A DNA stretch of 64,000 nt, taken from the IMG/VR virus record IMGVR_UViG_3300000553_000021, positions 13,528 to 77,527 of that record, one strand, 5' to 3'. This DNA comes from a virus. Its lineage: Duplodnaviria; Heunggongvirae; Uroviricota; Caudoviricetes. How positions within the stretch are numbered: position 1 is the stretch's first letter; every line of letters begins with the position of its first letter. Shown here one piece after another: positions 27,944-63,281 of the stretch. A model generated the notes under the pieces. The model was not told the origin of the DNA and did no database searches. It saw only the letters and a program-made list of their open reading frames with translations. The position numbers and the translations under genes are program-made.

Positions 27944-28042
27944 AAAACACTAAAAAACCTAACTGATTGATTATCAACAAGTTATATATTACACTAAAAA
28001 GTGGGGCATAACTGGTTGATTATCAGTAGGTTAAAAAAAGAT

Positions 28043-36336: not shown

Positions 36337-36397
36337 AATAACCCTAAAATAAGGTAACATATTAGAAAAAACCCTAATATACTACCCTAAAACATAA

Positions 36398-36441
36398 CCC
36401 ATTGATTATCAGCAAGTTATAACTAGTTGATTTTCAATGGG
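36398..36441 (+). repeat. 44-bp imperfect palindrome CCCATTGATTATCAGCAAGTTATAACTAGTTGATTTTCAATGGG (module repeat, long form)
   Basis: Outer arms CCCATTGA/TCAATGGG; central GTTATAAC and AACTAGTT palindromes; related copies at 44756-44806, 27961-27995, 25146-25175, 17724-17745. Confidence 0.7.
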
Positions 36442-36540
36442 TTATTTATGTCTATTACATTTTTTTTATATATGAAAAAAACATATATGTAACTCATTGA
36501 TTATCATCAAAAAACTTCTAAAAATACTTTGACCAAGCCA

Positions 36541-36570
36541 TTGTCACGTCGCTAAATAGTCGTAACTTTG
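36541..36570 (+). promoter_or_regulatory. promoter (-33 TTG 36541-43; -7 TAACTTTG 36563-70), conserved with 44870-44899
   Basis: CATTGTCACGTCGCTAAATAGTCGTAACTTTGGG vs CATTGCCACGTCGCAAAAAAGTCGTAATTTAGAC. Confidence 0.55.
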
Positions 36571-36616
36571 GGTATATCCCAACAATGAGAGGGGTGGTAT
36601 ATAAAAAAATTATAAT

Positions 36617-40160: not shown

Positions 40161-40499
40161 ATGAAAATCAAATCACATTTTCCTCCATTTTGTTTTGAAA
40201 GTCCGGTGACTGGAAAGAAATGGATAGTATGTACCGGTAAAGGTGCAGAATGGATAGAAGTAAACCGATGGTATGGGTGGACAGAGTTGGAAGGTATGTG
40301 GGATAAGATTGTGTATGGACATGAAAAGACATGGGAAACCAAAAGTGACAAGAAAGAATACAAAGTTAAAGGTAGTAAAGATAATGTGTATAAGGTAGTT
40401 AATGATGGTGGTATTTGGACTTGTAGTTGTCCCGCACATGGTTTCGGTAGAGGTAAAGATTGTAAACATATTATTCAAATAAAAAGTAAAAAGAAATAA
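40161..40499 (+). CDS. SWIM zinc-finger protein
   Basis: C-terminal WTCSCPAHGFGRGKDCKHIIQ = CxCx(n)CxH SWIM signature. Confidence 0.5.
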   Translation: MKIKSHFPPFCFESPVTGKKWIVCTGKGAEWIEVNRWYGWTELEGMWDKIVYGHEKTWETKSDKKEYKVKGSKDNVYKVVNDGGIWTCSCPAHGFGRGKDCKHIIQIKSKKK

Positions 40500-41689: not shown

Positions 41690-42052
41690 ATGAGTATACA
41701 AAAAATGAGTAGAAACCCTATAATGTTAGTAGATAAGGTATTTGAAATTCCATTATTTGCCGCTACGGGACAACAATACATATGTACCGAAGTTGCAGAT
41801 TTAGGTGTGGATGCACGTAGTAAAAGATATGGGGTATATTTAAAATGGCTTCCAACATCATATTCAGTACCTGAAGTATTAAGAATGGATATTGAAATAT
41901 TTAGTTCATCTAATAGTTTAATTAATGTAACCTTATATGAAAAAACGGATAATGGTAGTTATGTTGTAACTTGTAATGGAACATTTCTTAGGGATTTAAT
42001 ATCAACACCTAGTAAAATACAAAGATTGATTACTGAACTAATTAACAAATAA
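41690..42052 (+). CDS. hypothetical protein, paralog of 48039..48407
   Basis: Shared MLVDK.F.IP.F.A.T..Y.C..V......YSVPE pattern. Confidence 0.5.
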   Translation: MSIQKMSRNPIMLVDKVFEIPLFAATGQQYICTEVADLGVDARSKRYGVYLKWLPTSYSVPEVLRMDIEIFSSSNSLINVTLYEKTDNGSYVVTCNGTFLRDLISTPSKIQRLITELINK

Positions 42053-42429
42053 TGAAAACAAAAACATACTTTAGTGAGTTTCGTAGTGACATTGCGGTAG
42101 CTATTTTGGGTAAAGATGATTACCGATATGATGTTCTCAAACCTATCTTTGATGAATGTGGTTTTGGATTTACCGAAACATCATCAGCATGTGTATTCAT
42201 TGATGGTGAGATTAAACTAACCAAAGATGAATTGAAGTGGGTTGAGGCACATGAGGTAGCACATATATTATTAAAACATACAAAGGATAGAAACCCTAAC
42301 GATGAAATAGCAGCAGATATGTTTGCAATCATCTTACTAAAAGATAAAGGATATAATAAAGCCGCACAATTAGTAGAGGACAAATTTGAAGAAAGACATA
42401 AACGTAAATATTATGAAACTAACAATTAA
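42052..42429 (+). CDS. ImmA/IrrE-family zinc metallopeptidase (DUF955-like)
   Basis: HEVAHILLKH (HExxH) followed by EIAADMFAIILL (E..A..FA block). Confidence 0.55.
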   Translation: MKTKTYFSEFRSDIAVAILGKDDYRYDVLKPIFDECGFGFTETSSACVFIDGEIKLTKDELKWVEAHEVAHILLKHTKDRNPNDEIAADMFAIILLKDKGYNKAAQLVEDKFEERHKRKYYETNN

Positions 42430-42721
42430 TAACTTTAAGAAACTTAAAGAACAAAGATGGGATGAACAAAACTATATTGAAAGTATTACTGAAAAAGTTG
42501 ACCGTTATGAAATTAGTGTATGGAGAGACCATATGCGACAATATATTATGTTAGAAAGAAAGCCAGTAGAAAATGGTTATTACATAATTGGTAAATGGAG
42601 TAACGAAGCACATTGTGTAAGATATCCATATTGGATAAAGCATGAGGATATAGTGGATATTACAAAACTGATGGATAAACTTAAATTAATGACAGATAGT
42701 TGGTCACCTAAATTATTATAA
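42413..42721 (+). CDS. MLTIKNI-family small protein (divergent member, MKLTINN start)
   Basis: ORF track 42386..42721; internal ATG 42413 gives MKLTINNFKKL...RYEISVW...GYYIIGKWS matching family blocks. Confidence 0.4.
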   Translation: MKLTINNFKKLKEQRWDEQNYIESITEKVDRYEISVWRDHMRQYIMLERKPVENGYYIIGKWSNEAHCVRYPYWIKHEDIVDITKLMDKLKLMTDSWSPKLL

Positions 42722-42722
42722 A

Positions 42723-43301
42723 ATGAAAAAATTATTAGTGGGGTTATTATTATTTGCAACATTTAGTTGTAACGGACAAAATTTAGATACATCCTTAACA
42801 AAAGAGGACAGTATGAATGTAAAGAATGTTCAAATGGCAGTGTGGTCGTTACCATTTAAACATAAAGATATTATAGTAGCACAGGCGATATTAGAGAGTG
42901 GGTGGTTTAAATCCCGTAATTGTGTTAATAACAATAACCTATTCGGAATGAGGCGGGCATACACCAGAATGACAACAAGTGATACTACATTAAACGGATA
43001 TGCACACTACGCAAATTGGAGAATGAGTGTTATTGATTATTATTTATTACAATCAACACGAGAAAGTATTATACCATCCAGTAGAGCACAATACTTTAGA
43101 TATTTGGACAAAGTATATAGTGAAGTTGGTAGGAATTATAGTGACCAATTAAAGGATATATTAAGTAGATTGAATTTAGAAACGGATGAACCAAAGGTAG
43201 AACCAAAAGTAATTAAACATAAAACTATTAAACATGCAAAAGCCAGTAAACTTTCAAAAGGTAGACAACGAAATATTAAAAATAAAAAGTCAGAGTATTA
43301 G
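42723..43301 (+). CDS. secreted peptidoglycan hydrolase (glucosaminidase/FlgJ-type domain), lysin-like
   Basis: Signal/lipobox MKKLLVGLLLFATFSC; VAQAILESGWFKSRNCVNNNNLFGMR matches the glucosaminidase AQAxLESGWG...NNLFGIK block. Confidence 0.55.
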   Translation: MKKLLVGLLLFATFSCNGQNLDTSLTKEDSMNVKNVQMAVWSLPFKHKDIIVAQAILESGWFKSRNCVNNNNLFGMRRAYTRMTTSDTTLNGYAHYANWRMSVIDYYLLQSTRESIIPSSRAQYFRYLDKVYSEVGRNYSDQLKDILSRLNLETDEPKVEPKVIKHKTIKHAKASKLSKGRQRNIKNKKSEY

Positions 43302-43776
43302 AATAGATGTATGTAATTCACCTGAAGGATTTTTTGTATTCCAAGATAATGGAGGACCTGCCCAAACGTGGAACAATGCCGTTCTATTTGAAATGGATTG
43401 GGCAAATGATAAATACAATGTTAAAATATGTGCTTTAGGTGAGGGAGTTGATGGTTGGTATATACATGAAAACTTACCAATACCAAAATCATATATGAAA
43501 ACATTAAGTTTATTCAAAGAGTTTGTTCATGATAATATGTTGGATGTAGCATCGAAAGTATCTTTACACAAAATAGAACCTAATACAATGGGACTAACTG
43601 AATTAGATGCGGTTGAAATATCACATACAGTCGCAAGTAGTTCAGGTCCGACATCGTATGTAGTGACAGAAAATGTTGGTGGGTTAGCTGGGTTATGGAG
43701 TTGTACTTGTCCTGCATATCAGTATAGTAAATCATTACCACAAACTTGTAAACATATTAAACAATTAAATCCGTAG
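43234..43776 (+). CDS. SWIM zinc-finger protein
   Basis: C-terminal WSCTCPAYQYSKSLPQTCKHIKQL; start uncertain (overlaps upstream gene by 68 nt). Confidence 0.45.
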   Translation: MQKPVNFQKVDNEILKIKSQSIRIDVCNSPEGFFVFQDNGGPAQTWNNAVLFEMDWANDKYNVKICALGEGVDGWYIHENLPIPKSYMKTLSLFKEFVHDNMLDVASKVSLHKIEPNTMGLTELDAVEISHTVASSSGPTSYVVTENVGGLAGLWSCTCPAYQYSKSLPQTCKHIKQLNP

Positions 43777-43779
43777 TAT

Positions 43780-44088
43780 ATGATAACAATTGCAAATATA
43801 AGATCAGAGTTAATGCATATGCAAATATATGATGGGATTTATATAGATGATATTATAGAAAAGAAAAAAAATGGTTATAATATATATCATATATGTTTAA
43901 GAAATCATGAGGGTGCAACATACAACATTTTCTTTTATAGAGAATTGGGACAGGGTGGTATACCTACAAAATATCTATTTGGTTGTCCTGAAGCAGAATT
44001 GGGTGAGTATTTAAGTGAGGATGAAGTAAAAGCAAAGGGTATGGTGATATACACATTTACCAAATTAATTAAATCAGCAAGAGGATAA
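43780..44088 (+). CDS. MLTIKNI-family small protein
   Basis: MITIANIRSEL...YNIYHICLRNHEG...TYNIFFYRE. Confidence 0.5.
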   Translation: MITIANIRSELMHMQIYDGIYIDDIIEKKKNGYNIYHICLRNHEGATYNIFFYRELGQGGIPTKYLFGCPEAELGEYLSEDEVKAKGMVIYTFTKLIKSARG

Positions 44089-44089
44089 T

Positions 44090-44449
44090 ATGTTACACAT
44101 TAAAAACTATTCAAAAATAATAGGTGACTTTATTGAATATAAAGAATATACATTAGGTATCGAATCTATAACACAAATGGCAGACAGCTATCATATATTA
44201 GTTTACTTAAATCGTGATGGAGTAAAAGAGGACTATATCGGTATGGAATTGACACGAACTAAAAAAGCAAAGTATAGATACCAATTATATCAAACACATA
44301 TGCATCATAATAATACCGCAGTGACATTAGATTGTATCCAGAATTTAGATTGGTTTGGGTATATAATATGTAAAATGGCAGGTAATGGTAATTGGCAGAT
44401 GAATATACCAGCATGGTCACAAAATAACCCTAGTAAAAAAATAAATTAA
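44090..44449 (+). CDS. MLTIKNI-family small protein
   Basis: MLHIKNYSKIIG...SYHILVYLNRDG...YRYQLYQTH. Confidence 0.5.
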   Translation: MLHIKNYSKIIGDFIEYKEYTLGIESITQMADSYHILVYLNRDGVKEDYIGMELTRTKKAKYRYQLYQTHMHHNNTAVTLDCIQNLDWFGYIICKMAGNGNWQMNIPAWSQNNPSKKIN

Positions 44450-44455
44450 AACACA

Positions 44456-44725
44456 ATGAAAACATTTAATGATTTAGAATTTGTACCACACTTAATGGGT
44501 GTAGGTATTATGAGCCGTATTACATTTGATAATGGATATGGTGCATCAGTAGTTAAAACACCTTACACTTATGGTGGTGATAAGGATTTGTATGAATTGG
44601 CAGTATTAGATAACGATGGTAATTTAACATATGAAACACCTGTTACGGATGATGTTATAGGTTATTTAAGACCTATGGATGTAACGGACGTAATGGAAAA
44701 AATACAGCAACTACCTAAGATATAG
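44456..44725 (+). CDS. hypothetical protein
   Basis: ORF track. Confidence 0.4.
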   Translation: MKTFNDLEFVPHLMGVGIMSRITFDNGYGASVVKTPYTYGGDKDLYELAVLDNDGNLTYETPVTDDVIGYLRPMDVTDVMEKIQQLPKI

Positions 44726-44750
44726 TAAAAAATCTTAATATGTTGGGTAT

Positions 44751-44806
44751 ATTTCATAACTCATTGATTATCAGCAAGTTATAACTAGTTGGTATTCAAT
44801 GGGTTA
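44751..44806 (+). repeat. module repeat TTTCATAACTCATTGATTATCAGCAAGTTATAACTAGTTGGTATTCAATGGG
   Basis: Near-identical to 36398-36441; a second degenerate copy AACTCGTTGATACTCAATAA at 44821-44843. Confidence 0.7.
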
Positions 44807-44869
44807 TAATTGTTTGACGTAACTCGTTGATACTCAATAAAAACTTTTAAAAATAGTTACCTAAATGCA

Positions 44870-44899
44870 TTGCCACGTCGCAAAAAAGTCGTAATTTAG
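44870..44899 (+). promoter_or_regulatory. promoter (-33 TTG 44870-72; -7 TAATTTAG 44892-99)
   Basis: Conserved with 36541-36570; 19-nt spacing. Confidence 0.5.
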
Positions 44900-44946
44900 A
44901 CTATTACCGACAGGATAGGGTACAATACATAACAAAAATTTATAAT

Positions 44947-45297
44947 ATGAGAGTAATTGATGAAAAAGCAATAGAGTATCTTAAAGGCAATCCTATTGTT
45001 GCCGCATTTATTGATGAAGTTAATGATAAACGATTTAAGTATTACACAAACGCAAGTATGCCTGACCAATATCAAGATGTGATACCTGAAATTGGTAACA
45101 AATACATTCGTTTATGGTGTGGTAGTAGTTGTTGGGGATTTATTAGTAGAGTGGATGGTGACTTAAAAGGTGCACCGATTAAGAAAGGTGATTTGTTAAA
45201 AGCCGCAACTTGGAAAGCACCTGCAAAACATAGTAGAGGTAACATTATAGATGGTACTGCTCAATGGGGTGAATATGGACCTTCTTATATTAAATAA
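44947..45297 (+). CDS. hypothetical protein
   Basis: ORF track; first gene after module. Confidence 0.5.
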   Translation: MRVIDEKAIEYLKGNPIVAAFIDEVNDKRFKYYTNASMPDQYQDVIPEIGNKYIRLWCGSSCWGFISRVDGDLKGAPIKKGDLLKAATWKAPAKHSRGNIIDGTAQWGEYGPSYIK

Positions 45298-45315
45298 TAA
45301 AACAAATAATAAGTT

Positions 45316-45969
45316 ATGAAATTAACACTAAATAAAGGTCAGAAGTTATGGTTTACAAGTGACACACATTATAACCACGCTAACATTTGTAGTTCAACAA
45401 CAAAGTGGACAGACCCGGTGACTTGTAGAGAGTTCAATACATTAGAACATATGAACGCACATTTAGTTGGTAATATAAATGAAGTAGTTGGACAAGATGA
45501 TATTTTATTTCATTTGGGAGATTGGAGCTTCGGTGGGTTTGAACAAATACAAAAGTTTAGAGACCAAATTGTATGTAAGAATGTTCACCTTATATTGGGT
45601 AATCACGACCACCACATTGAAAACAATAGATTTGATTGCCAAAACTTATTTAGTTCAGTAAACAAATATTTGGACTTGACTGTAAAATGGAATGTGGGTA
45701 CGCCGTTTAGTGGTGAACATAAATTTATATTAATGCACTTTCCAATTGCAAGTTGGGATAATATGGCAAGAGGTTCAATTCATTTGCACGGACACGTTCA
45801 CTTTACTGCCGATAAAAGAATTGGTTTAGGTAAAATGATGGATGTAGGTTGTGATGGTAACAATTTATATCCAATTGAAATGAGTGAAGTATTTAAGTTG
45901 TTGAGAAACCAACCAATCAAAAGTTTATTTGAATTTGACCATCATGAAATTGTAGAAAACTATAAATAA
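45316..45969 (+). CDS. calcineurin-like metallophosphoesterase
   Basis: SDTHY (DxH), LGDWSF (GD), LGNHDHH (GNHD), HGHVHF (GHxH). Confidence 0.65.
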   Translation: MKLTLNKGQKLWFTSDTHYNHANICSSTTKWTDPVTCREFNTLEHMNAHLVGNINEVVGQDDILFHLGDWSFGGFEQIQKFRDQIVCKNVHLILGNHDHHIENNRFDCQNLFSSVNKYLDLTVKWNVGTPFSGEHKFILMHFPIASWDNMARGSIHLHGHVHFTADKRIGLGKMMDVGCDGNNLYPIEMSEVFKLLRNQPIKSLFEFDHHEIVENYK

Positions 45970-45975
45970 TATAAT

Positions 45976-46287
45976 ATGCTAACAATAAATAATATAGATG
46001 GTATAGTAGGACTCTCTGCAAATGGTAACCGAATAAACGGATTTAGATTAGATAATAACAATTTGATATCTGGAAATCATTATGTGTTTGTAATGAAACA
46101 AAATTACAATAGTAGAAAGATTGAAGTGTGGTTAAATAGAAACCGAAATGAATTGGGTAAATATCAAATGTTTGTTATGGGTTGGAAAAGTGGAACAATT
46201 ATTGAAGTGACACCAAATCAATTAAAAGATGCCGTTGAAGGTGCCGTATGTGTTAGAGACTGTTTACAATTATTAGATAAATGCTAA
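45976..46287 (+). CDS. MLTIKNI-family small protein
   Basis: MLTINNIDGIVG...HYVFVM...IEVWLNRNR...GKYQMFVMG. Confidence 0.5.
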   Translation: MLTINNIDGIVGLSANGNRINGFRLDNNNLISGNHYVFVMKQNYNSRKIEVWLNRNRNELGKYQMFVMGWKSGTIIEVTPNQLKDAVEGAVCVRDCLQLLDKC

Positions 46288-46297
46288 AATATAAAAT

Positions 46298-47392
46298 ATG
46301 AAATTAGAAACGATTTACAAAAAGACAAAGACTGGTGCAACGCAAGAGTGGACAATTGAAGTAGTGGGTAATAAATACCGAACTCATAGTGGACAAGTTG
46401 GTGGACAAATTACAACGAATGAATGGACAATCGTTTATGGTAAGAATGAGGGTAAGTTAAATGAAACTACCGATAAGGAGCAAGCAATGAAAGAAGCGGT
46501 AGCTAAACGAACAAAGAAGTTAGAGAGTGGTTACTTTGAGAATGTTAAAGATATTAATAAGCAACAATACTTTGAACCTATGTTAGCTGCTAAATGGGAA
46601 GATTGTAAAGATAAGGTTACATATCCTATTTACTCTCAACCAAAGTTAGATGGTATTCGTTGTATAGTGACACGACATGGTATGTTTAGTAGAAATGGTA
46701 AACCAATCATTTCAGCTCCACATATTTTCAAAGCATTAGTTCCACTATTTGAGGAAACGCCTGATTTGATATTTGATGGTGAGTTATATGCTGATAAGTT
46801 TGCTAATGATTTCAATAAAATTGTATCGTTAGTTAAGAAAACAAAACCAACGGATAAGGACTTAAAAGAAAGTAAAAAGAATATTCAGTATCACATTTAC
46901 GATTTACCAAGTGTTGATGATACATTTAAGGTTAGATATTCAACATTATGTTCATTGAGATTACCAAAAGAATGTATTGTAGTAAAAACACATTTGGCCA
47001 AAAATGAAGATATTGTAATGGAACGATATGGTGAATATGTAGAAGCAGGTTACGAAGGACAGATGTTAAGAATAGATGGTTTGTATGAAAACAAACGAAG
47101 TAAGAACTTATTAAAACACAAATCGTTTGTTGATGATGAATATACTATTTTAGATATTGTAGAGGGTGAGGGAAACCGAACTGGAACTGCTGGGTATATG
47201 GTATTTGAGACAGAGGATGGTAAACGCTTCAAATCAAATGTAAAAGGAACTTGGGATGAAACTGCTGAAATGCTTAAAAGTAAAAAGAAACTAATAGGTA
47301 AACAAGCAACGATTAAGTATTTTAACTTAACGCCAGATGGAATACCTCGTTTCCCTTATGTAATTAATATAGATAGAGAAAGTTATGAATAG
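46298..47392 (+). CDS. lig: ATP-dependent DNA ligase
   Basis: Motif I SQPKLDGIRC (KxDG), III LIFDGELYA, IV YEGQMLRID, V NLLKHKS. Confidence 0.8.
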   Translation: MKLETIYKKTKTGATQEWTIEVVGNKYRTHSGQVGGQITTNEWTIVYGKNEGKLNETTDKEQAMKEAVAKRTKKLESGYFENVKDINKQQYFEPMLAAKWEDCKDKVTYPIYSQPKLDGIRCIVTRHGMFSRNGKPIISAPHIFKALVPLFEETPDLIFDGELYADKFANDFNKIVSLVKKTKPTDKDLKESKKNIQYHIYDLPSVDDTFKVRYSTLCSLRLPKECIVVKTHLAKNEDIVMERYGEYVEAGYEGQMLRIDGLYENKRSKNLLKHKSFVDDEYTILDIVEGEGNRTGTAGYMVFETEDGKRFKSNVKGTWDETAEMLKSKKKLIGKQATIKYFNLTPDGIPRFPYVINIDRESYE

Positions 47393-47708
47393 ACCAATAA
47401 ATTTTAGAAAGATAAATAATACAAAATTCACAACATCAAAAGGATATGAATATTCGTTTCAATACGATGGTGTACATCCTGAGGTGTGGGTATTTCGTTT
47501 TCCTGATAATACAAACAATGTTTTGGCATTTATTATGATATGGGAATATCAAAGATATGAAATAAGGAGAGCCGGAAATGGTAAAGGTACTACTTGGATT
47601 GATACACTACACAAAGGAAGCTTTGATAAAGCAACTATGAAAACAATGGATTCATTTACCGATTGGGTGAAAGATAGAATAGAACATTTTGAATCACAAT
47701 ACGATTAA
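47385..47708 (+). CDS. hypothetical protein
   Basis: ORF track. Confidence 0.45.
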   Translation: MNRPINFRKINNTKFTTSKGYEYSFQYDGVHPEVWVFRFPDNTNNVLAFIMIWEYQRYEIRRAGNGKGTTWIDTLHKGSFDKATMKTMDSFTDWVKDRIEHFESQYD

Positions 47709-47709
47709 T

Positions 47710-48027
47710 ATGATAACAATACAAAATTTAGATAAAATATTAGCAATCAATTCACAGAGAGTTGAAGTGATGCATTTTCAAGAATATAATAGTTTATATG
47801 AATTTGAATTTATGCATGATAACATTAATTCAACTACATTCAGAGTTCATATGAATAGACATCATGATTGGGGTGATAAGGGTTCGTATAGAATGAAATT
47901 GTGGGATAGTATATCCAGTTCACCATTGGAATATAACTTTGAATTGTATAATGTAAAAGACCCATTTTGTTTATTAGCATATTTGCATGATGTAATTATG
48001 GATTGGGATATAATAACAAATAAATAA
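47710..48027 (+). CDS. MLTIKNI-family small protein
   Basis: ATG 47710 gives MITIQNLDKIL...; ORF track 47689..48027. Confidence 0.5.
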   Translation: MITIQNLDKILAINSQRVEVMHFQEYNSLYEFEFMHDNINSTTFRVHMNRHHDWGDKGSYRMKLWDSISSSPLEYNFELYNVKDPFCLLAYLHDVIMDWDIITNK

Positions 48028-48038
48028 AATAATAAAGT

Positions 48039-48407
48039 ATGAAATCAATTAAAAAAGAAAAAGGAGCATGGATGTTAGTAGATAAAGAGTTTAACATTCC
48101 AGTATTCAATGCAAATACACAAATGTATAAATGTATTGATGTTAGTGAAATAGCATCATCACCGGGAGGTAAAGATTACACTATTTCTTTAAGTGAAGTA
48201 AAACAACAATATTCAGTTCCAGAAAGAATAAATATTGATTTGTTTATACCAATTGATGGAAATGGTGGACTTGCTCATGTAACAATGAATGAGGTAGACC
48301 CAAAACGTGGTGATGTTAAATTAGGACAGACACTTACTCCCAAAGAAAACATAACTACTTTGGAAGGACTTAAAAAAGTATTTTACGAAATGGCAAAAAA
48401 AATGTAA
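48039..48407 (+). CDS. hypothetical protein, paralog of 41690..42052
   Basis: WMLVDKEFNIPVF...QYSVPERINIDLF parallels MLVDKVFEIPLF...SYSVPEVLRMDIEIF. Confidence 0.5.
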   Translation: MKSIKKEKGAWMLVDKEFNIPVFNANTQMYKCIDVSEIASSPGGKDYTISLSEVKQQYSVPERINIDLFIPIDGNGGLAHVTMNEVDPKRGDVKLGQTLTPKENITTLEGLKKVFYEMAKKM

Positions 48408-48408
48408 T

Positions 48409-48702
48409 ATGTTAAAGATAAATAATCCGACTGATATATTAGGAATGAATTTTGTAGGTGGCAAATACAAATTAAAGGAAGCCGAAGAACATGATGATAG
48501 ATATACATTTTCATTTCAAGATACCGATACAAATTGGGTAATCATTCACATATATCGAAAACCTATATGGGATAGTGAAAGAAGTGTAAATATGTATAGT
48601 GTGGACAATGGAACAATGCGTAATCATAGAGTATCTGCTAAATGGTTTGGTATGATTAAGAATGTTCAACTTACATTTAATGAAGCATTAAAAGATTTAT
48701 AG
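48409..48702 (+). CDS. MLTIKNI-family small protein
   Basis: MLKINNPTDILGM... Confidence 0.5.
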   Translation: MLKINNPTDILGMNFVGGKYKLKEAEEHDDRYTFSFQDTDTNWVIIHIYRKPIWDSERSVNMYSVDNGTMRNHRVSAKWFGMIKNVQLTFNEALKDL

Positions 48703-50250: not shown

Positions 50251-51483
50251 ATGAAAAATATATTATTAGGATTTTTATTAGTAGGTTTGTTCAGTTGTTC
50301 TAAAGTAGTTATAACACCATTACCGGTTATTCCACCATCAACAACACCTGTTACTACAACATACCAAACTTTAACTGCTGGTTATTATGTTGGAAAGACA
50401 TCTTATCAATTAAAAACACCATTTAAATTTGTTAATGTTGATAGTATACGTTTAGTATTAGGTATTAGAAATAAAGGTATCTATAATGGTAACAATAATT
50501 TAGGATATGTCTACATTGATATTAATGGTGATGGGTTAGAGGATATATTTTATCCGTATGAGTCCAATGGAAATTTTACAACTAAACCAGATGTTATTAT
50601 TAATAAGGGTAATCATTATGAATTAGATAATAGTATGTTACCTGATAACTTTGTTGGGACAGTAAATACTAGAAAAACAATTGTAGGTGATTTCAATAAT
50701 GATAGTTTACCTGATTTATTCTTAATTAATCAAGGATTGGATGCATCACCCTATCCTGGTGAACAATGCACATTATTACTAAGTGACAAAACTACTCATA
50801 AATACAAATTAGGTGATTTATCTATGTTACCAACTGCATTTTGGCATGGAGGTGCAAGTGGGGATTTAAATGGTGATGGTAATTTAGACATAATTGTTTT
50901 AGGTGGGCATCCTGCAAAAGTTTTATATGGTGATGGGAAAGGTAATTTTACAGGCCAAGATTGGCAATACAATGCAGGTTATGGTTATATTACTGGCGAA
51001 ATTATTGATGTTGATAATGATGGTAAGAATGATATTATATTAAGTGGTGATGAGGGAAGACCTGCACCTGCTTTATATTCACCTTCTACTATTTTTTTTA
51101 ACAAAAATAATAATTTTCAAACACAAACTCAAATATGTTTACCTAGTACAACTGGTTGGGGTAGTGTTATGGACATTGCATGTGCTGATGTTGATGGTGA
51201 TGGTATTAATGAAATATTTCTTGATAGAACAGGTGATATAACAGGAAGTTGGTATGGTGGATATACAATCAATGTATATAAATCCGACAAAACATATCAA
51301 ACATTTTCAGATGTAACTACAACGTATATTAAAAATAATGTTTCAATTCAACCACAAACAACTGCATGGATGTGGAGAATGTTATTATATAAATCAAATA
51401 ATATATGGGTATTAAATGGTTTTACAACTGATCAACATTCAACGATATGGGTACAAAACACAACAACTAAAATATTTGAATAA
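50251..51483 (+). CDS. lipoprotein with FG-GAP/VCBS-like beta-propeller repeats
   Basis: Lipobox MKNILLGFLLVGLFSC; repeated DxNGDGxxDI blocks (DINGDGLEDIF, GDLNGDGNLDII, DVDNDGKNDII, DVDGDGINEIF); ATG 50251. Confidence 0.5.
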   Translation: MKNILLGFLLVGLFSCSKVVITPLPVIPPSTTPVTTTYQTLTAGYYVGKTSYQLKTPFKFVNVDSIRLVLGIRNKGIYNGNNNLGYVYIDINGDGLEDIFYPYESNGNFTTKPDVIINKGNHYELDNSMLPDNFVGTVNTRKTIVGDFNNDSLPDLFLINQGLDASPYPGEQCTLLLSDKTTHKYKLGDLSMLPTAFWHGGASGDLNGDGNLDIIVLGGHPAKVLYGDGKGNFTGQDWQYNAGYGYITGEIIDVDNDGKNDIILSGDEGRPAPALYSPSTIFFNKNNNFQTQTQICLPSTTGWGSVMDIACADVDGDGINEIFLDRTGDITGSWYGGYTINVYKSDKTYQTFSDVTTTYIKNNVSIQPQTTAWMWRMLLYKSNNIWVLNGFTTDQHSTIWVQNTTTKIFE

Positions 51484-51658: not shown

Positions 51659-51856
51659 ATGAATTGGGAAAACAAATTAAAAGCAACTGGCTTTCTTTCG
51701 CTTAAAAACAAAGAGGGTGATACATTTTCTTATATTAAATTAGATGATGCAGCAAAGATAGCCGAAATGGCTTATAATGAAGCTTTAGACAAAGTTAAAG
51801 AAATCTATAAAGATGAAAAGGATATTGTTGATACAATAAAAGATTTGAAGTTATAA
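51659..51856 (+). CDS. hypothetical protein
   Basis: ORF track. Confidence 0.4.
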   Translation: MNWENKLKATGFLSLKNKEGDTFSYIKLDDAAKIAEMAYNEALDKVKEIYKDEKDIVDTIKDLKL

Positions 51857-53013
51857 TGCAATTTATTTACCACAATGAATATTATGGTATAGAATTTAGT
51901 TATTTTGAAAATAAAGGTTATTCATTAGTAGAAATACCACAAAATGATTACACTTACATTAACAAAATAAAAAATGGTGATGTATTATTTATAAAATTAG
52001 ATGATATTGATTACATTAATGCAAGTGTAAATAAAGAATATAAACTTACTATATTTTTATTTATTAATCATGAATATTGTAATAGACACAGAAGAAAAGC
52101 TATTATTGAAAATAGAAATATAAATCATAGAATATATTTTCTAACTACACATTTAGATAACGATACAACTGAATGTGATTTAGCATTAAGAACAAAATGC
52201 CTACCTTTTAAATCTTTATTTTCAGAAAAAGCATTTCAATTGAAAGATTCAAGAAACAAAAAATATAATTTCTTTAATCGTTCTATCAATTTACGCAGAA
52301 TTAAAATATTTGAACTTATTAAAAAACATAACATTCAATTAAAAGATTGTTATTATACATTTGGTCTTATAATAAAGAAAAACACATTTGGTGATATTAA
52401 ATCAATTAGTGATTTTATTAATTATAGAAATAGTCCAGGTGGGGGCAGAGATGGAAACGATGATTTAACATTTGATATTGAGTATTTAAATCAATTTACA
52501 AATGAGTTTTTTATATACGAAAATAAAATAGATGTTGAATTGGGTAATATACAAAGTTCAGATAGTATAGACATGTATGATGAAGTGAACATTAATTCAT
52601 TAGACTCATATGCATCTTTTATAGTTGAAAGTAGTGGTGATAGTGGTGATGATTTACGTTTGACAGAAAAAACGATAAGAGCTTGGTTATGTAAAAATAT
52701 ATTCATATCTTTACAATGTAGAGGATTTAATAGAGCACTCCGAAATAATGGAATAGAAACATTTGAAGATGTATTTGGTTTAGATACGAATTGGGATGAA
52801 AATATAAGTGAAACGGAAAGAATAGAAACATTTGTTAATGCATTAAAACGATTTAATGAATTACCAATTGAGGAAGTAGAACAAATATACAATACTGATA
52901 GTGTTCAACAAAGATTAGAAAATAATTATAGAATTGTTAATGGATGTTTTAATCCACTTAACGCTATTATGGAAATAGATAAATTGATTGGTTATGAAAA
53001 TAATGTTTATTAG
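51856..53013 (+). CDS. hypothetical protein
   Basis: ORF track 385 aa. Confidence 0.5.
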   Translation: MQFIYHNEYYGIEFSYFENKGYSLVEIPQNDYTYINKIKNGDVLFIKLDDIDYINASVNKEYKLTIFLFINHEYCNRHRRKAIIENRNINHRIYFLTTHLDNDTTECDLALRTKCLPFKSLFSEKAFQLKDSRNKKYNFFNRSINLRRIKIFELIKKHNIQLKDCYYTFGLIIKKNTFGDIKSISDFINYRNSPGGGRDGNDDLTFDIEYLNQFTNEFFIYENKIDVELGNIQSSDSIDMYDEVNINSLDSYASFIVESSGDSGDDLRLTEKTIRAWLCKNIFISLQCRGFNRALRNNGIETFEDVFGLDTNWDENISETERIETFVNALKRFNELPIEEVEQIYNTDSVQQRLENNYRIVNGCFNPLNAIMEIDKLIGYENNVY

Positions 53014-53704
53014 TGACACTCATGGTAGACACAATGAGATTACTAGTTTATATAGTGAGTTACCCTATGTAGACATGATTATACATAGTGGGGATTGTAC
53101 TCGTTATGGTGAATATGATGAAACGGATTTGTTTCTAAAATGGTATGCAAATAAAAATGCTAAACATAAGGTATTAATTGCAGGTAATCATGATTTTGTA
53201 TTTCAGAATCAAGATAGAAAGAATTTGTTATTAGCAAACAATCCAACAATTACTTATTTAGAAGATGAGTATATTAATATAGATGGTATGGGTATCTATG
53301 GTAGTCCATGGTCACCTATTTATGGTATGTGGGCATTTATGAAACATAGAAACCAAGAATTAGATGAAGTATGGCAAAAAGTTCCTACTGATGGTAGTAT
53401 AGATATATTAGTTACACATACACCTAGATATGGTAGACATGATATAAGTGTAAGAGGTAATTATCATGTTGGTTGTGAAATGTTAGCAAATCGTATCAAT
53501 GATATTAAACCTAAAGTGCATGTATGTGGACATATACATGAATGTGGTGGTATGATTGTTGAGGAAACATATGAAACACCAATAAAAGGAATGGTTAGTT
53601 TAAATGCATCTTTATTAGATATTAGATATTATTTATCTAATCCTATATGGATATGGGATACTGAAAGTGATGAATGGAGTTCAATAAATAAACATGAAAA
53701 ATAA
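52988..53704 (+). CDS. calcineurin-like metallophosphoesterase
   Basis: ISDTHGRH, HSGDCTRYG, AGNHDF, CGHIHE; start may be 53003 (MFISDTHG). Confidence 0.65.
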   Translation: MVMKIMFISDTHGRHNEITSLYSELPYVDMIIHSGDCTRYGEYDETDLFLKWYANKNAKHKVLIAGNHDFVFQNQDRKNLLLANNPTITYLEDEYINIDGMGIYGSPWSPIYGMWAFMKHRNQELDEVWQKVPTDGSIDILVTHTPRYGRHDISVRGNYHVGCEMLANRINDIKPKVHVCGHIHECGGMIVEETYETPIKGMVSLNASLLDIRYYLSNPIWIWDTESDEWSSINKHEK

Positions 53705-54332
53705 ACTTTGGGTATTCGGTTGTTCATTATCTACTGGATTTGGTGGACACAATTATGTTGTAAACGAAAACAAAACATGGCCTAAATTATTAGCAGATAA
53801 ATTGAATTTAGAATTAGATAATTCAGCACATGCCGGTCAATGTAATTGGGTTTCAATACTACAATTTATTGATAAGAGAGATCAAATACAAAAAGGTGAT
53901 AAGGTAATATTTGAATTTACATTCTTTGATAGATATAATATTTATCCAACTCGTGCACAATTAATAGATTTAGAAGCATTTTTTATTCAACATAAACATG
54001 ATTTAAGTGAAGTATCACAACAATATAGAGATACCAATTTTAACTGGTTTAAAAAACAAGTTTTAAAGTGGTGTTTAGATAATGATATAAATTTATATGT
54101 ATGGAGTGTTGAGGGACAAACCCATATAGAGTTTAAAAGATACAACGAAATAATTGAATTTATTACAGCACCAAATTCAACGAATGATAATATAAATTAT
54201 TCATTTTATTATAAATGGCAAGATATATCAAATGAACAACATATAGTTAAACCTAATGGTGAAATAGATAGACATTTTAATGAATTAGGACATCAACGAA
54301 TGGCAAATCATTTTTATTCTAAGATAATTTGA
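53694..54332 (+). CDS. SGNH-hydrolase-like protein (paralog of 54893..55648)
   Basis: N-terminal LWVFGCSLSTGFGG; C-terminal DRHFNELGHQRMANHF (DxxH block). Confidence 0.45.
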   Translation: MKNKLWVFGCSLSTGFGGHNYVVNENKTWPKLLADKLNLELDNSAHAGQCNWVSILQFIDKRDQIQKGDKVIFEFTFFDRYNIYPTRAQLIDLEAFFIQHKHDLSEVSQQYRDTNFNWFKKQVLKWCLDNDINLYVWSVEGQTHIEFKRYNEIIEFITAPNSTNDNINYSFYYKWQDISNEQHIVKPNGEIDRHFNELGHQRMANHFYSKII

Positions 54333-54358: not shown

Positions 54359-54613
54359 ATGATTAAGTTAGAAGCATTTGAACCATTTAAAGAAGCTAAC
54401 CCAGAATTAGCAGCAACGGGTAAATATGGTGTATTAGTATTAGACAAAGGTACATGGATACCACTTGAAATAACTGAAGAAGATTTCGGTAAATATAAAC
54501 AAGTACATCCACAAAGCCAAAATCAAACAGATGAGGATAAGGCTTTGCATGAAGCCGCTTTTGAAACAAATAAAGGTGGACATTCTGCTTGGGTATTAGT
54601 AGAATTGGTATAA
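54359..54613 (+). CDS. small hypothetical protein, tandem paralog A
   Basis: LEAFEPFK...GVLVLDKGTWIPLEITEEDFGKY vs the next ORF. Confidence 0.45.
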   Translation: MIKLEAFEPFKEANPELAATGKYGVLVLDKGTWIPLEITEEDFGKYKQVHPQSQNQTDEDKALHEAAFETNKGGHSAWVLVELV

Positions 54614-54628
54614 TTAAAATAATATAAT

Positions 54629-54889
54629 ATGTTACAATTAAATGCCTTTAATCATTTTAAAAATGAAATTAAAAATAAACCCTTAGTTGATGAGGGTTTA
54701 TTTGGTGTCTTAGTCCTAACAAAACAAAGTTGGGTGCCCACTAAAATAACAGAACAAGACTTTGCCCGTTATGAACATGTATCTTATTATGATAGTGAGG
54801 AACTTCGTATTAAATTAGAAGATGCAGCTTGGAAATTGGGAAATACAATAGCACCAATGTGGCCGTTAGTTAGATTAATTGAATGGTAA
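54629..54889 (+). CDS. small hypothetical protein, tandem paralog B
   Basis: LNAFNHFK...GVLVLTKQSWVPTKITEQDFARY. Confidence 0.45.
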   Translation: MLQLNAFNHFKNEIKNKPLVDEGLFGVLVLTKQSWVPTKITEQDFARYEHVSYYDSEELRIKLEDAAWKLGNTIAPMWPLVRLIEW

Positions 54890-54892
54890 TTA

Positions 54893-55648
54893 ATGAATAA
54901 GTTATACATTTACGGATGTTCACATAGTGCAGGTAATTTATTAGGTTACGCACATACTGAAAATCAATATTTAGAAAAGTTAGGAGAGGGTATTAGATAT
55001 TTATCTACTCAATATACCGAATGGCTTGGTCATATTGGTAATCCTTTTTATGTGCAATTAGCAAATGAATTGGGATTGGAGTGGATATTAAGAGCTGAAG
55101 GTGGGCATAGTAATCAACAACAATTCAAAAGATTATTAGGTGATTTACATAAAATAAACAAAGATGATACTATAATATTTCAATTTACACATTTTGTTAG
55201 ATTTGAAGTTCCAATTTTACAAAACGGCAAGTGGATAAGTGATGGTTGGCAAAAGGGTGGTAGTTTGGTATTTGACGATCCTAAATACCAACATTTTTAT
55301 TTAACACATTTGGATTTTGAAATACCATTTATAATAGAAATAGTTAAACAAATACTTACATTATTAAAATACATAGAAACCAATATAGGTGCAAAAGTTT
55401 ATATTTGGTCAATGGATAGTATTAGTGATGAAATAAATGAATATACTAAATTAGTAGAACAGCCTAATTTAATTAGATTTGAAATAGATGGTGAAATCTA
55501 CAATTATTTAAGTGGTGTTACCAATAGTATAGATAGAAATGAACACTTTATAATTAAGCATGAAACAAAAGGTGAAGTTGATGATATGCATTTTGGTGAA
55601 TTAGGTCATAAATTTATGTATGAAAATATTTTGAAGTTTATAAAATAA
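54893..55648 (+). CDS. SGNH-hydrolase-like protein
   Basis: LYIYGCSHSAGNLLG; C-terminal DDMHFGELGHKFMYENI. Confidence 0.45.
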   Translation: MNKLYIYGCSHSAGNLLGYAHTENQYLEKLGEGIRYLSTQYTEWLGHIGNPFYVQLANELGLEWILRAEGGHSNQQQFKRLLGDLHKINKDDTIIFQFTHFVRFEVPILQNGKWISDGWQKGGSLVFDDPKYQHFYLTHLDFEIPFIIEIVKQILTLLKYIETNIGAKVYIWSMDSISDEINEYTKLVEQPNLIRFEIDGEIYNYLSGVTNSIDRNEHFIIKHETKGEVDDMHFGELGHKFMYENILKFIK

Positions 55649-56978: not shown

Positions 56979-57589
56979 TGAAAGAGTATTATTGTAGATA
57001 TTGTGGAAAGGAAAGTACATATACGGATGTAGATTATTTAATAGGTAACGATCATTTGAGTTGTGTATTAAACGCAATGGATGAAGCTAAAAAACCAAAA
57101 GTTATGAAAATTAAAGGGTGGGAAAAAATAAGTGGATATGTATACAAAGGATATGCATTAGTAAATCCAATACACAATGCCGGTGAGACAAAATATATGG
57201 TAGATGTATTAGACTTAAACTTACCACATAAACCAAAATGGGAATTGAGTGTATTGACATCGGAACATAAATGGTTGGGTAGCAAATCAGATAATTTTGG
57301 TATCTTATTGTGGGATGATAATCGTATGAATGTAACACGTTCAGTTAATAAAGAGGACATGCAATCACTAGCAAAGTTTAATAGAGTATTTGAGGAAATG
57401 ATAGATGAAATGTTGGGAATAAGATTAGCATCAGCACCAGCATATAGTAGCCATTCAATGGGGGGTATTGTAAATAATGTAACTAATAGTGGAACTACAA
57501 TACCATATGCACAAATGATACAAACTCAACAAAGTTTATCAGCACAAATTAAACAATTAACTAAAAAGATAAATGGTGGAAGCAAATAA
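56978..57589 (+). CDS. hypothetical protein
   Basis: ORF track 203 aa; N-terminal CRYCGKE Cys pair. Confidence 0.5.
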   Translation: MKEYYCRYCGKESTYTDVDYLIGNDHLSCVLNAMDEAKKPKVMKIKGWEKISGYVYKGYALVNPIHNAGETKYMVDVLDLNLPHKPKWELSVLTSEHKWLGSKSDNFGILLWDDNRMNVTRSVNKEDMQSLAKFNRVFEEMIDEMLGIRLASAPAYSSHSMGGIVNNVTNSGTTIPYAQMIQTQQSLSAQIKQLTKKINGGSK

Positions 57590-59098: not shown

Positions 59099-59398
59099 TT
59101 GCTTACTATTAAAAACATATCAAAGTTAAATGGGTACGAAGCACATCCTTGGAAAATAGATACAATATCGACCAATGATGACACTTATATATTCTTAATT
59201 GATAACGCCGATAAACATTTTATAACTACGGCAGTATTACATAGAATACCACAAGATATTGATGGAAATATACTATATAGTTTGACCGTTTATAGGGATG
59301 AACAATTAATACCTAAAAGCCTATTAAGTTCACCTAAATCATTGGGTAAACATATTATAAATTTACTTAATATGATTGAGTTTACCAATCCTTTTTAA
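59099..59398 (+). CDS. MLTIKNI-family small protein (TTG start)
   Basis: (L)LTIKNISKLNG...TYIFLI...AVLHRIPQDIDG. Confidence 0.45.
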   Translation: MLTIKNISKLNGYEAHPWKIDTISTNDDTYIFLIDNADKHFITTAVLHRIPQDIDGNILYSLTVYRDEQLIPKSLLSSPKSLGKHIINLLNMIEFTNPF

Positions 59399-59449
59399 CA
59401 TATATAACTGGTTGAAAATCAATGAATTAGCTCTAAAATACCAATATTT

Positions 59450-59480
59450 TTGGTAGTTTGGGGCTTTTTTCGTATCTTTG
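59450..59480 (+). promoter_or_regulatory. promoter (-33 TTG 59450-52; -7 TATCTTTG 59473-80), leaderless into ATG 59486
   Basis: TTTCGTATCTTTGACTATATG is the same block as 17786-17800. Confidence 0.5.
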
Positions 59481-59485
59481 ACTAT

Positions 59486-59752
59486 ATGATAACAATTAAA
59501 AATAGTGATGCAATTATCCGACGAGACCTTACTGATAATTGGTATGTGTTGGGTATTAAGATGGGTTATAATGCATATTATATTAATCTAACACAAACGG
59601 GTGCATTAAAATTCAAAAATTGTAAGTTATTTAGAGAGCCAAATGCAGCCGGTTTATACATACTCAAACATGGGAATTATACGTGTTCACTAACCAAACA
59701 GCAATTAGGTGATATGAATTATGTTTTAAAATGTTTAGAAACTTTTATATGA
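59486..59752 (+). CDS. MLTIKNI-family small protein
   Basis: MITIKNSDAIIRR...; ORF track 59450..59752 trimmed to the ATG after the promoter. Confidence 0.5.
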   Translation: MITIKNSDAIIRRDLTDNWYVLGIKMGYNAYYINLTQTGALKFKNCKLFREPNAAGLYILKHGNYTCSLTKQQLGDMNYVLKCLETFI

Positions 59753-60048
59753 TAACAATAAAGAATTACAGCGAGATATGTGGCCATAAGGTAGGAGTTA
59801 ATGGACATAGAATTGTAGGTGTGGATGAATTACCAACACAATATAGTATTATTATTTATGATAATGTAAACCCACGTTTTACAATATGTTTAGAACGATT
59901 GGGTATTAATGGTGATTATGAATTATGGGTAAGAAATGTATCACCATATACAAATCATAAAATAATTAAAAGATTAATGATACCAAAAGCAGATATTCAA
60001 AACAAATGGATATTATTAGAACATTTAGACGAGTTATTAAGTAAATAA
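59749..60048 (+). CDS. MLTIKNI-family small protein
   Basis: MITIKNYSEICG...; ATGA overlap with the upstream stop. Confidence 0.5.
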   Translation: MITIKNYSEICGHKVGVNGHRIVGVDELPTQYSIIIYDNVNPRFTICLERLGINGDYELWVRNVSPYTNHKIIKRLMIPKADIQNKWILLEHLDELLSK

Positions 60049-60469: not shown

Positions 60470-61348
60470 ATGAATTTAGGTTACGCTTGTATTAACATGA
60501 GTATGGGTAAGAAGGTCACTACAAACCGAACAATGGTTAAGAGGACCTTTGAGGCTAAGGGGTTAGATTATGTATCGGAGTTAGCGTTGCTTAATTCAAA
60601 GGATATTATCAAAGTATTAGAATGGAATAGACAGAATGGAATTATGTTCTTTCGTTTATCCTCAACAATAATACCTTGGGGTGACCACATTGATATAACT
60701 ACTCTCAAAGATTACAAAGAGATTAAGAGTGAGTTAAAGAAAGCCGGTGACTTCGCTAAGTTCTGGAATATGAGGATAACATCACATCCAGGTCCGTTCA
60801 ATGTATTAGTATCGCCTAAAGAGGAAGTGGTATTAAATACGATAGCTGATTTAGAATTACATGCTAAGATATTTGATATGATGGGGTTATCTAAAACACC
60901 TTATAACAAAATTAATATACATTGTAACGGAGTGTATGGCGATAAGATAAAAGCAATGGATAGATTTTGTGATAACTTTGCACGATTATCCGATTCAGTT
61001 CGTAGCCGATTAACAATTGAGAATGATGACAAAGCTAGTATGTATTCAGTTAAGGACTTAATGTATATTCACAATAAGATAGGAATACCTATTACATTTG
61101 ATTATCATCATCATAAATTTTGTACCGGTGGATTGAGTGAGCAAGAAGCATTGGAGTTAGCAATAACAACATGGCCTAAAGGTATAACGCCAGCAGTTCA
61201 CTATTCGGAAAGTAGAGACGATAAGAAACCGCAGGCACATAGTGATTACATTGAAAGGTTACCTGAAACATATGGTAATGTGGTGGACATAATGGTAGAA
61301 GCAAAACAAAAAGAATTAGCAATATTAAAATTTATAAAGAATGATTAA
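60470..61348 (+). CDS. uvdE: UV-damage endonuclease UvdE/Uve1 family
   Basis: LGYACINMS start, FRLSS, SHPGPFNVL, TIENDD, FDYHHH, VHYSE, MVEAKQKELA blocks typical of the UVDE TIM-barrel family. Confidence 0.65.
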   Translation: MNLGYACINMSMGKKVTTNRTMVKRTFEAKGLDYVSELALLNSKDIIKVLEWNRQNGIMFFRLSSTIIPWGDHIDITTLKDYKEIKSELKKAGDFAKFWNMRITSHPGPFNVLVSPKEEVVLNTIADLELHAKIFDMMGLSKTPYNKINIHCNGVYGDKIKAMDRFCDNFARLSDSVRSRLTIENDDKASMYSVKDLMYIHNKIGIPITFDYHHHKFCTGGLSEQEALELAITTWPKGITPAVHYSESRDDKKPQAHSDYIERLPETYGNVVDIMVEAKQKELAILKFIKND

Positions 61349-61985: not shown

Positions 61986-62249
61986 ATGCTAACAATTAAA
62001 AATCCACAAAGGTTAATAGGTGAGGAATATAGTGATTGGTTAAAAGTAATTAGTGTAAAAGAACATAATAATCATTATGAGTTTACATTAGCTAATAAAG
62101 AAATGAGCCAAATAGAAACTTTCTTATTACATAGAAAACGAACAGAGAATGGCAATTATATACTGGAATATAATAGTCACACACTATGGTTAAATAAAGA
62201 TGAATTTGACACAATCGATAAGATTATAATTTGTATGCAAACTATATAA
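61986..62249 (+). CDS. MLTIKNI-family small protein
   Basis: MLTIKNPQRLIGE...HYEFTL...FLLHRKRTENGNYILEYNS. Confidence 0.5.
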   Translation: MLTIKNPQRLIGEEYSDWLKVISVKEHNNHYEFTLANKEMSQIETFLLHRKRTENGNYILEYNSHTLWLNKDEFDTIDKIIICMQTI

Positions 62250-62253
62250 GAAT

Positions 62254-62565: not shown

Positions 62566-62631
62566 CAGCGGGGGCTGGGGGGACTCGGTGTCGATTAGGA
62601 AAATTTTTTGATAGTAGAAAACATATATACA

Positions 62632-63275: not shown

Positions 63276-63281
63276 AATACA

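Follow-up and report, generated by a model that had tools for sequence, protein, structure and literature searches.

How did one stretch of phage DNA come to carry the same small gene many times over, partly in tandem arrays and partly scattered among genes of DNA metabolism, and what might the products do? The question is raised by a stretch of 64,000 nucleotides (nt) from a tailed virus (Caudoviricetes; IMG/VR record IMGVR_UViG_3300000553_000021, positions 13,528 to 77,527), which we refer to as the window. A first-pass annotation, made from the sequence alone, had listed six open reading frames (ORFs) between 42413 and 48702 as dispersed relatives of an array of genes at 59–64 kb. We call these genes the MLTIKN family, after their N-terminal motif. 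It appears that they form an old, lineage-specific multigene family whose arrays change by recombination at a conserved gene head and whose products may make up a set of binders; in this explanation as a whole we have somewhat better than even confidence, and its parts are graded separately below.

Membership and number of copies

All six ORFs are present on the + strand, from 42413–42721 to 48409–48702 (Table 1). A hidden Markov model (HMM) trained on eight array genes at 59–64 kb alone, and used to search 122 long + strand ORFs, found every one of them as a full-length match (E = 2.8e-11 to 1.2e-5). The six thus cluster with the array in the profile comparison by which the first-pass annotation had proposed to judge them. 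Their matches run from profile positions 1–2 to positions 95–102, that is, over the whole domain and well beyond the N-terminus. The best non-member in this search was ORF 57077–57589 (E = 2.2e-3), to which hhalign with a 132-sequence family profile gave a probability of 14%, versus 97–99% for true members. For the most divergent of the six, at 43780, the hhalign probability was 96.9% (E = 1.7e-10), a value that is not independent since the profile alignment includes this sequence itself. BLASTP hardly links the paralogs of the window, which are only 14–28% identical (about 20%).

A six-frame search with a 14-gene profile added a copy with a TTG start at 59099–59398 (E = 1.4e-9), outside the training set. 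The window therefore holds 14 copies with ATG starts, the TTG-start copy and one copy cut by the window end, i.e. 15 complete members and one truncated. The earlier count of at least 16 is exact for the window, because eleven other small ORFs tried as members (47385, 56978/57077, 54359, 54629, 43234/43393, 44456, 41690, 48039, 60144, 61763 and 40161) reached hhalign probabilities of 14% or less each. For the ORF starting at 56978 or 57077 and ending at 57589 (170–203 amino acids (aa)), there is a weak match to part of the C-terminal half of the profile (E = 2e-3 to 2e-4), which could be due either to very remote kinship or to chance. The layout described earlier, three clusters with the two dispersed ones flanking a repeated intergenic module, is also correct.

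Distribution of the family and copy number per genome

The window is 30% G+C and essentially every gene lies on the + strand. Its DNA matches come from metagenomes of Trout Bog lake and related series, as contigs of up to 149,544 bp. The sole GenBank phage with DNA similarity to it is Flavobacterium phage immuto (69.5% over 315 nt, in a phosphoesterase gene). The Bacteroidota-type -7 promoter box TAnnTTTG is present in several intergenic gaps and Bacteroidota-like lipoprotein signals open several of the window proteins; because of these features the host is likely a member of the Bacteroidota.

Six window members and two array members gave no family match in Pfam, PHROGs or NCBIfam, and 132 aligned homologs scanned singly against Pfam and PHROGs gave none at threshold. 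Nothing was returned at E ≤ 1 by tblastn with three members against 50,697 GenBank phage records, and a six-frame HMM search over 150/160 kb of immuto, in which the family was not found, gave nothing below E = 0.06. The DNA pattern ATGYTAACAATHAARAAYAT had 119 matches in 185,579 bacterial and archaeal genomes, none of which encodes a member; in this narrow test neither prophage nor cellular copies turned up.

Searched with a profile, 1.84 billion cluster representatives yielded 327 proteins at E ≤ 1e-3, and among the matches listed nearly all are 87–125 aa long, with profile position 1 at residue 1. The top match (P0002, E = 1.5e-16) corresponds to the member at 44090, which is itself in the query profile. 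The orthogroup of the 42413 copy is the richest in database matches, a start of MKLTIKN or MRLTIKN being seen in about 80 of 268 retrieved proteins. One candidate, P0236 (953 aa, six partial matches), was rejected as a low-complexity repeat protein and a spurious match.

The head of the gene (described below), used as a DNA pattern in IMG/VR, retrieved 50 stretches, 22 of which contain family members. Several stretches carry 8–15 copies within 8–13 kb, and two stretches of one 101-kb contig about 29 copies combined. Every family-bearing stretch shares other genes with the window phage, including the ligase (73–87%) and a GP88-like gene (59–85%). For this reason the family appears, as far as can be seen, to be confined to one clade of large uncultured freshwater phages (contigs of 100–251 kb). 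Beyond position 64000 the array continues with 10 extra copies to the end of the 149.5-kb contig, with 12 in another strain and with 13 in a third. Judged from these contigs, the window lineage would carry about 25–28 copies per genome, and members of the clade from 16 to about 30; about 28 genes of about 315 nt amount to roughly 6% of a 150-kb genome. No description of the MLTIKN family was found in the literature. As far as these searches show, the family, its fold, the size of the expansion and a conserved in-gene head with a rare codon are undescribed; large phages are already known to expand small accessory genes and to amplify genes through microhomology.

History of the dispersed copies

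All six dispersed copies occupy the same positions in a close relative (L057/L058), and their ratios of non-synonymous to synonymous substitution rates (dN/dS) versus L057 are 0.12–0.54. They are real proteins under purifying selection, each separately maintained. Three of them (45976, 47710 and 48409) lie within a more diverged block, at 78–86% protein identity to L057/L058, most neighbours being 95–100% identical. The copy at 45976 is fast-evolving (79% identity to its L057 ortholog, with the highest ratio of the six). In a distant relative (L059) the neighbourhood is rearranged, and orthologs of four of the six are found there (Table 1). Orthologs of the dispersed copies are similarly present in many IMG/VR loci, those of the 42413 copy at 70–90% identity. 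Because the paralogs are just 14–28% identical, the duplications behind the dispersed copies are old, and the six are fixed parts of a DNA-metabolism gene block, not recent insertions.

The first-pass annotation had attributed the dispersal to repeated duplication together with cassette-like insertion. Repeated duplication is retained here as the only reasonable origin of the family. The second part would have each copy inserted independently by a site-specific or repeat-mediated mechanism, like integron cassettes or the promoter–stem-loop (PeSL) cassettes of T4-type phages. Such an origin would agree with the scattering of copies among conserved enzyme genes, with the different order of the surrounding genes in the window and in L059, with a gene-precise indel in the region (48039–48407, lacking in L057) and with the unit-precise indels in the arrays described below. 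However, the flanking direct repeats suggested earlier as mediators are at background length: the longest around the six are 5–8 nt, versus a mode of 7 nt for the + strand ORFs of the window. No conserved sequence precedes position -1 of the start codon, and neither an integrase nor an attC-like element was seen in the region. Nor do ancient paralogs, fixed at all six positions in L057/L058 and with four orthologs in L059, fit with such a mechanism. For the six copies cassette insertion is thus unsupported and largely refuted, and as an account of the family we consider it highly unlikely.

Copy-number change and the conserved gene head

A set of strains or contigs (L183–L188) covers the array beyond the window, and two pairs of near-identical strains among them differ by a single gene. 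L184 has one 331-nt unit more than L183, where the gene at the junction takes its first 18 nt from the left copy (ATGCTAACAATAAAAAAC) and its body from the right. Similarly, L185 has one 103-aa unit more than L187, where the sequence is that of the left copy as far as ...ATATGCTAA and that of the right copy thereafter, the switch point being inside ATATGCTAA. In both one-gene differences the junction falls within the conserved first 7–18 nt of the ORF, the head ATGCTAACAATA, and so the repeat used in the shuffling is the gene's own head and not a flanking element. In these two natural cases copy number has changed by precisely one unit with junctions at the head. From them we infer that the arrays generally grow and shrink by unequal recombination at the head: every unit begins with this repeated head, whose conservation extends to synonymous sites, and copies would be gained and lost by crossovers in the first 7–18 nt of the ORF, and the resulting flux in copy number might act as a 'genomic accordion', like those of the T4 gene tifA and poxvirus K3L.

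The head consensus is T immediately followed by ATGCTAACAATAaAaAATATAgAtAAa. Its codon usage is strongly biased, the copies in the following counts not being independent: Leu2 is CTA in 17 of 23 copies (74%) versus 7% of Leu codons genome-wide or in the window (binomial P = 1.6e-15), Ile4 is ATA in 22 of 27 versus 40%, and Thr3 is ACA in 16 of 19 versus 52%. Among 58 copies of other phages that were not chosen by the search pattern, CTA was found in 23 of 48, versus 9% in the bodies of the same genes. The head is more conserved than the protein requires, since at about 20% protein identity synonymous sites should long have been randomised. Either it is kept uniform by recombination or conversion, or it carries a nucleic-acid signal, or both.

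The second of these options is an alternative in its own right. The head would be mainly a nucleic-acid signal (a non-Shine-Dalgarno initiation context, a built-in ATGYTAA stop or the RNA or DNA site of a regulator) and recombination at it a by-product; this concerns the head only and is compatible with the explanation given above for the rest. The protein sequence cannot explain the bias to the rare CTA, or to ATA and ACA. Moreover, codon 3 nearly always begins with A, and the resulting ATG-YTA-A supplies the TAA of the upstream gene in the 7-nt ATGCTAA overlaps at two junctions of the 61986–63928 array (62931 and 63605); starts are packed tightly as TAAT-ATG. Neither a built-in stop nor low RNA structure accounts for the preference for CTA, however, because TTA gives the same TAA and is richer in A+T. 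Furthermore, the head matches no known motif, and other phage genes start efficiently without it. We therefore regard a mainly nucleic-acid role of the head as unlikely.

Predicted fold and possible function

The signature of the family reads M-L-T-I-x-N-[IY]-x-K-[IL]-x-G ... W-x-[IV] ... Y-x-[IF]-x-[LI] ... [IV]-x-L-x-R ... G-x-Y-x-L, and beyond it lies an amphipathic helix at the C-terminus. In the numbering of member 61986–62249, I4 and N6 are invariant in 132 family sequences and M1, Y31, R50 and Y58 are at least 90% conserved. In the 14 aligned window copies M1, I4, N6 and the equivalents of Y31 and R50 are invariant; the equivalent of Y58 is kept in most, not all, of the six dispersed copies. 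Members are stand-alone proteins of 87–119 aa (97–119 aa for the dispersed six).

AlphaFold with 132 homologs gave a confident model of 61986–62249 (predicted local distance difference test (pLDDT) 94.6; predicted template modelling score (pTM) 0.83), with helix 7–10, strands 20–26, 30–36, 43–49, 58–62 and 65–69, and helices 71–74 and 77–86. In the predicted fold a five-stranded antiparallel sheet is thus preceded by a short N-terminal helix and followed by a long C-terminal one. The elements of the model of the dispersed member 45976, of lower confidence, come in broadly the same order, six strands being called in place of five. No segment of either model is predicted to be disordered or unfolded, and no signal peptide or membrane segment was apparent on reading the sequences, which is not a formal prediction; the members are apparently soluble. 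The isoelectric point varies from 5.3 to 9.4 on this constant scaffold. Most of the weak structural neighbours are small proteins that act as adaptors, chaperones, immunity proteins or inhibitors (type III secretion chaperones, TriTu, Rv3902c, PsiB, AcrIF24 and RsfG). When LAGLIDADG homing endonucleases were considered, neither a profile match nor the LAGLIDADG catalytic helix was found.

The strongly conserved N-terminus could be a targeting or processing signal, as in the internal proteins of T4, and the family would then be packaged in the phage head and injected into the host. The first dozen residues are indeed the most conserved, with I4 and N6 invariant, and profile position 1 is residue 1 in nearly all relatives; in addition immuto, the nearest cultured relative by DNA, has T4-like morphogenesis and a prohead core protease. 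However, homology extends over the whole domain, and residues 1–10 of the 61986 model have an average pLDDT of 93, because of which the N-terminal signature is probably part of the fold and not a free tail. The T4 protease motif (L/I)xE is not conserved either (at position 5, 49% of members have K, 16% E and 14% Q), and the genes lie among those of DNA metabolism, not of morphogenesis. We consider packaging and injection highly unlikely.

Another possibility is an immunity-type array, like those of SUKH/Imm proteins, in which the paralogs would neutralise toxins or nucleases, either the phage's own or the host's, superinfection exclusion included. This would be in keeping with tandem arrays of diverged small alpha/beta proteins and with a marginal match of one member to Imm26 (E = 0.055). 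Yet no significant match to an Imm or SUKH Pfam entry was obtained among the 132 members, no toxin-like genes were recognised beside the arrays (most neighbours have no Pfam match) and the similarity in fold is within the noise for this architecture. An immunity role of this kind therefore seems quite unlikely.

Our own proposal is a tentative one, held at well below even confidence: the MLTIKN proteins may be small modules that bind or inhibit, have diversified and serve in host takeover or counter-defence, each paralog acting in the cytoplasm and recognising a different host target on the common scaffold. It is suggested by the constant scaffold with variable charge together with the many old, selected paralogs, by their location among DNA-metabolism genes (which may be early-expressed) and the faster evolution of some members, and by the kinds of weak structural neighbours. 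A stronger version, which we consider doubtful, combines this with the recombination data: the phages would hold a self-renewing repertoire of 25–30 single-domain binders, and the 12–18-nt head with its rare CTA would be a built-in recombination handle. If true, the handle would permit duplication, deletion and exchange of entire genes in register, and the phages would have an architecture dedicated to generating diversity for counter-defence or host takeover, with a protein fold to which nothing known is closely related.

Several points weigh against these proposals. No characterised homolog of the family and no conserved partner gene were found, nor was there any significant fold match. N6, Y31, R50 and Y58, common to all paralogs, could equally point to a common ligand or partner instead of diversified targets. 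As regards the arrays, the case for head-mediated recombination comes from two junctions only, and the block after the L187/L185 junction is only 81% identical, so that this junction may instead bound a segment exchanged with another phage in mosaic fashion. The codon bias of the head could be due to a signal in translation or RNA and not to recombination. Finally, the restriction to a single clade was judged on pattern-seeded loci, not on complete genomes.

Neighbouring genes and the repeated intergenic module

The coordinates of the family members and of associated features are collected in Table 1. Neighbours that could be identified encode a ligase, phosphoesterases, a HAD phosphatase, a glucosaminidase and UvdE.

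Table 1. MLTIKN family members and associated features of the window (dN/dS versus L057; L059, protein identity of the ortholog)
Feature	Coordinates	Strand	Length (aa)	Array-only HMM E	dN/dS	L059	Remarks
Member MKLTINN	42413–42721	+	102	1.4e-9	0.12	77%	One additional residue after Met
Member MITIANI	43780–44088	+	102	1.2e-5	0.23		Most divergent of the six
Member MLHIKNY	44090–44449	+	119	2.0e-10	0.46		Start 1 nt past the stop of the preceding member
Member MLTINNI	45976–46287	+	103	2.8e-11	0.54	37%	AlphaFold pLDDT 77
Member MITIQNL	47710–48027	+	105	1.5e-6	0.49	81%	
Member MLKINNP	48409–48702	+	97	1.7e-7	0.35	58%	
Member (M)LTIKNISKL	59099–59398	+	99				TTG start; missed when only ATG starts are read
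Tandem pair of members	59486–59752, 59749–60048	+					4-nt ATGA overlap
Six tandem members	61986–62249, 62254–62565, 62632–62937, 62931–63275, 63282–63611, 63605–63928	+					Span 61986–63928
Sixteenth member, MLTIENIQRL...	63930–64000	+					Cut by window end
HExxH (HEVAH) peptidase-like gene	42052–42429	+	125				End overlaps member 42413
Intergenic module, copy between the two dispersed clusters	44726–44946	+					79% identical to 36337–36616 over about 225 nt
Intergenic module, second copy	36337–36616	+					Bacteroidota-type -7 box TAACTTTG at 36563

The first dispersed copy had been described as overlapping the end of an ImmA/IrrE protease gene. The overlap is real (17 nt, the upstream gene ending at 42429), but the label is only tentative, as all matches of this HExxH gene are sub-threshold (Peptidase_M48, E = 6.7e-4; M78, E = 2.3e-3), with a weak precomputed assignment to PF10463 (Peptidase_U49, Lit family). 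In L059 the HExxH gene and the 42413 ortholog are not neighbours, so the overlapping arrangement is not conserved. Member 45976 lies directly upstream of the ATP-dependent DNA ligase gene (46298–47392), as does its ortholog in L059, and a HAD_SAK_2 phosphatase-like gene is directly downstream of member 48409.

Another pair of paralogs, outside the MLTIKN family, consists of 41690–42052 (120 aa) and 48039–48407 (122 aa; E = 6e-13). The latter is directly upstream of a family member and the former upstream of another, with one gene in between; 48039–48407 is missing in L057 by a precise start-codon-to-start-codon indel. The genes 40161–40499 and 43234/43393–43776 share a C-terminal SWIM-like zinc motif, W-x-C-x-CPA...CKHI (Pfam SWIM sub-threshold, E = 0.004), and gene callers put the start of the second at 43393 (127 aa), not 43234.

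The two copies of the intergenic module have a 53-nt core at 94% identity and a 27-nt core exclusive to both sites. At 44726–44946 the palindrome CATAACTCATTGA...TCAATGGGTTAT is accompanied by TAACYCRTTGAT boxes; for both copies the palindrome is given as CATAACCCATTGA...TCAATGGGTTAT. The 12-nt box TAACYCRTTGAT occurs 17 times in the window versus 2.3 expected, mostly in intergenic DNA and often as inverted pairs, and outside the modules it is found at 17724, 25146–25170, 27960–28020 and 59405–59429. The module is probably a regulatory element or promoter, and together with the boxes it looks like an operator/promoter set of a phage regulator. A single terminator-like hairpin was seen in 41–49.5 kb (44986–45003); it lies in the gene after the module and adjoins no family gene.

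Two Bacteroidota-type -7 boxes, TATTTTTG and TATCTTTG, occur in the gap 59399–59485 before member 59486. Because the second box ends 6 nt before the ATG, the pattern suggests that the transcript is leaderless or nearly so. Between the two parts of the array lies a gene for a UvdE-type ultraviolet damage endonuclease (60470–61348; PF03851, from the precomputed annotation of an identical locus), followed by three small membrane-like ORFs.

Further from the family, paralogs 53694–54332 and 54893–55648 (E = 7e-9) flank a second pair, 54359–54613 and 54629–54889 (E = 1e-13; MIKLEAF and MLQLNAF), an arrangement that suggests a nested duplication; the inner pair is outside the MLTIKN family (hhalign probability <2%). 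The genes 50251–51483 (FG-GAP repeat lipoprotein-like) and 51856–53013 (385 aa) are 59% and 45% identical to L057, respectively, the flanking genes being 95–98% identical; these two long genes are hypervariable and possibly serve in host interaction.

Comparison with known systems

Roughly one gene in ten of a 150-kb phage belongs to the MLTIKN family, which has a confident predicted structure without a close known relative. Large phages are rich in small uncharacterised genes, and lineage-specific expansions are among the best pointers to genes of host interaction. Here, in addition, natural populations differ in copy number, and the junctions can be mapped. If the proteins were inhibitors of host defence or machinery, they would offer dozens of natural variants of one scaffold with differing targets, and the conserved head would provide a simple rule by which phages enlarge and trim such repertoires. 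If they were injected proteins or regulators instead, the family would still mark unexplored biology of freshwater phages that likely infect Bacteroidota.

T4 amplifies tifA, an 85-aa ToxN inhibitor gene, via microhomologies of 6–10 bp, and poxvirus K3L is cited in the same study as a case of a 'genomic accordion' (PMC9391042). Similarities to tifA are the small size of the accessory gene (about 85–100 aa), the copy number that differs between close strains and the very short homologies involved (6–10 bp in T4 versus 7–18 nt in the MLTIKN arrays). However, the T4 copies are identical, recent and unstable, whereas those of the MLTIKN family, 16 to about 30 in number, are ancient (about 20% identity) and each conserved in its own right. 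The homology in the MLTIKN arrays is a conserved part of every gene, not a chance microhomology, and the T4 inhibitor has a known target, ToxN, whereas none is assigned for the MLTIKN proteins.

The internal-protein loci of T4 are variable and share only the capsid-targeting peptide. Like them, the MLTIKN genes are several small genes with a strongly conserved N-terminal peptide in a plastic region of a large myovirus-like genome; unlike them, they have homologous bodies, an N-terminus that is predicted to be folded, no cleavage motif and a DNA-metabolism context.

Arrays of SUKH/Imm genes, from bacterial polymorphic-toxin loci and viral expansions, resemble the family in that diverged small single-domain alpha/beta proteins are thought to present varied surfaces on one scaffold. 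They differ in that the MLTIKN proteins have no Imm or SUKH match and no recognised adjacent toxins, and were seen only in phage contigs. CesT/SycE-like type III secretion chaperones and related small alpha/beta adaptor folds are also among the closest known systems. Finally, the paralogous families of jumbo phages and giant viruses are alike in being lineage-specific expansions that take up several percent of the genome; unlike these, the MLTIKN family has no Pfam or PHROGs entry, and no cultured phage was found to carry it.

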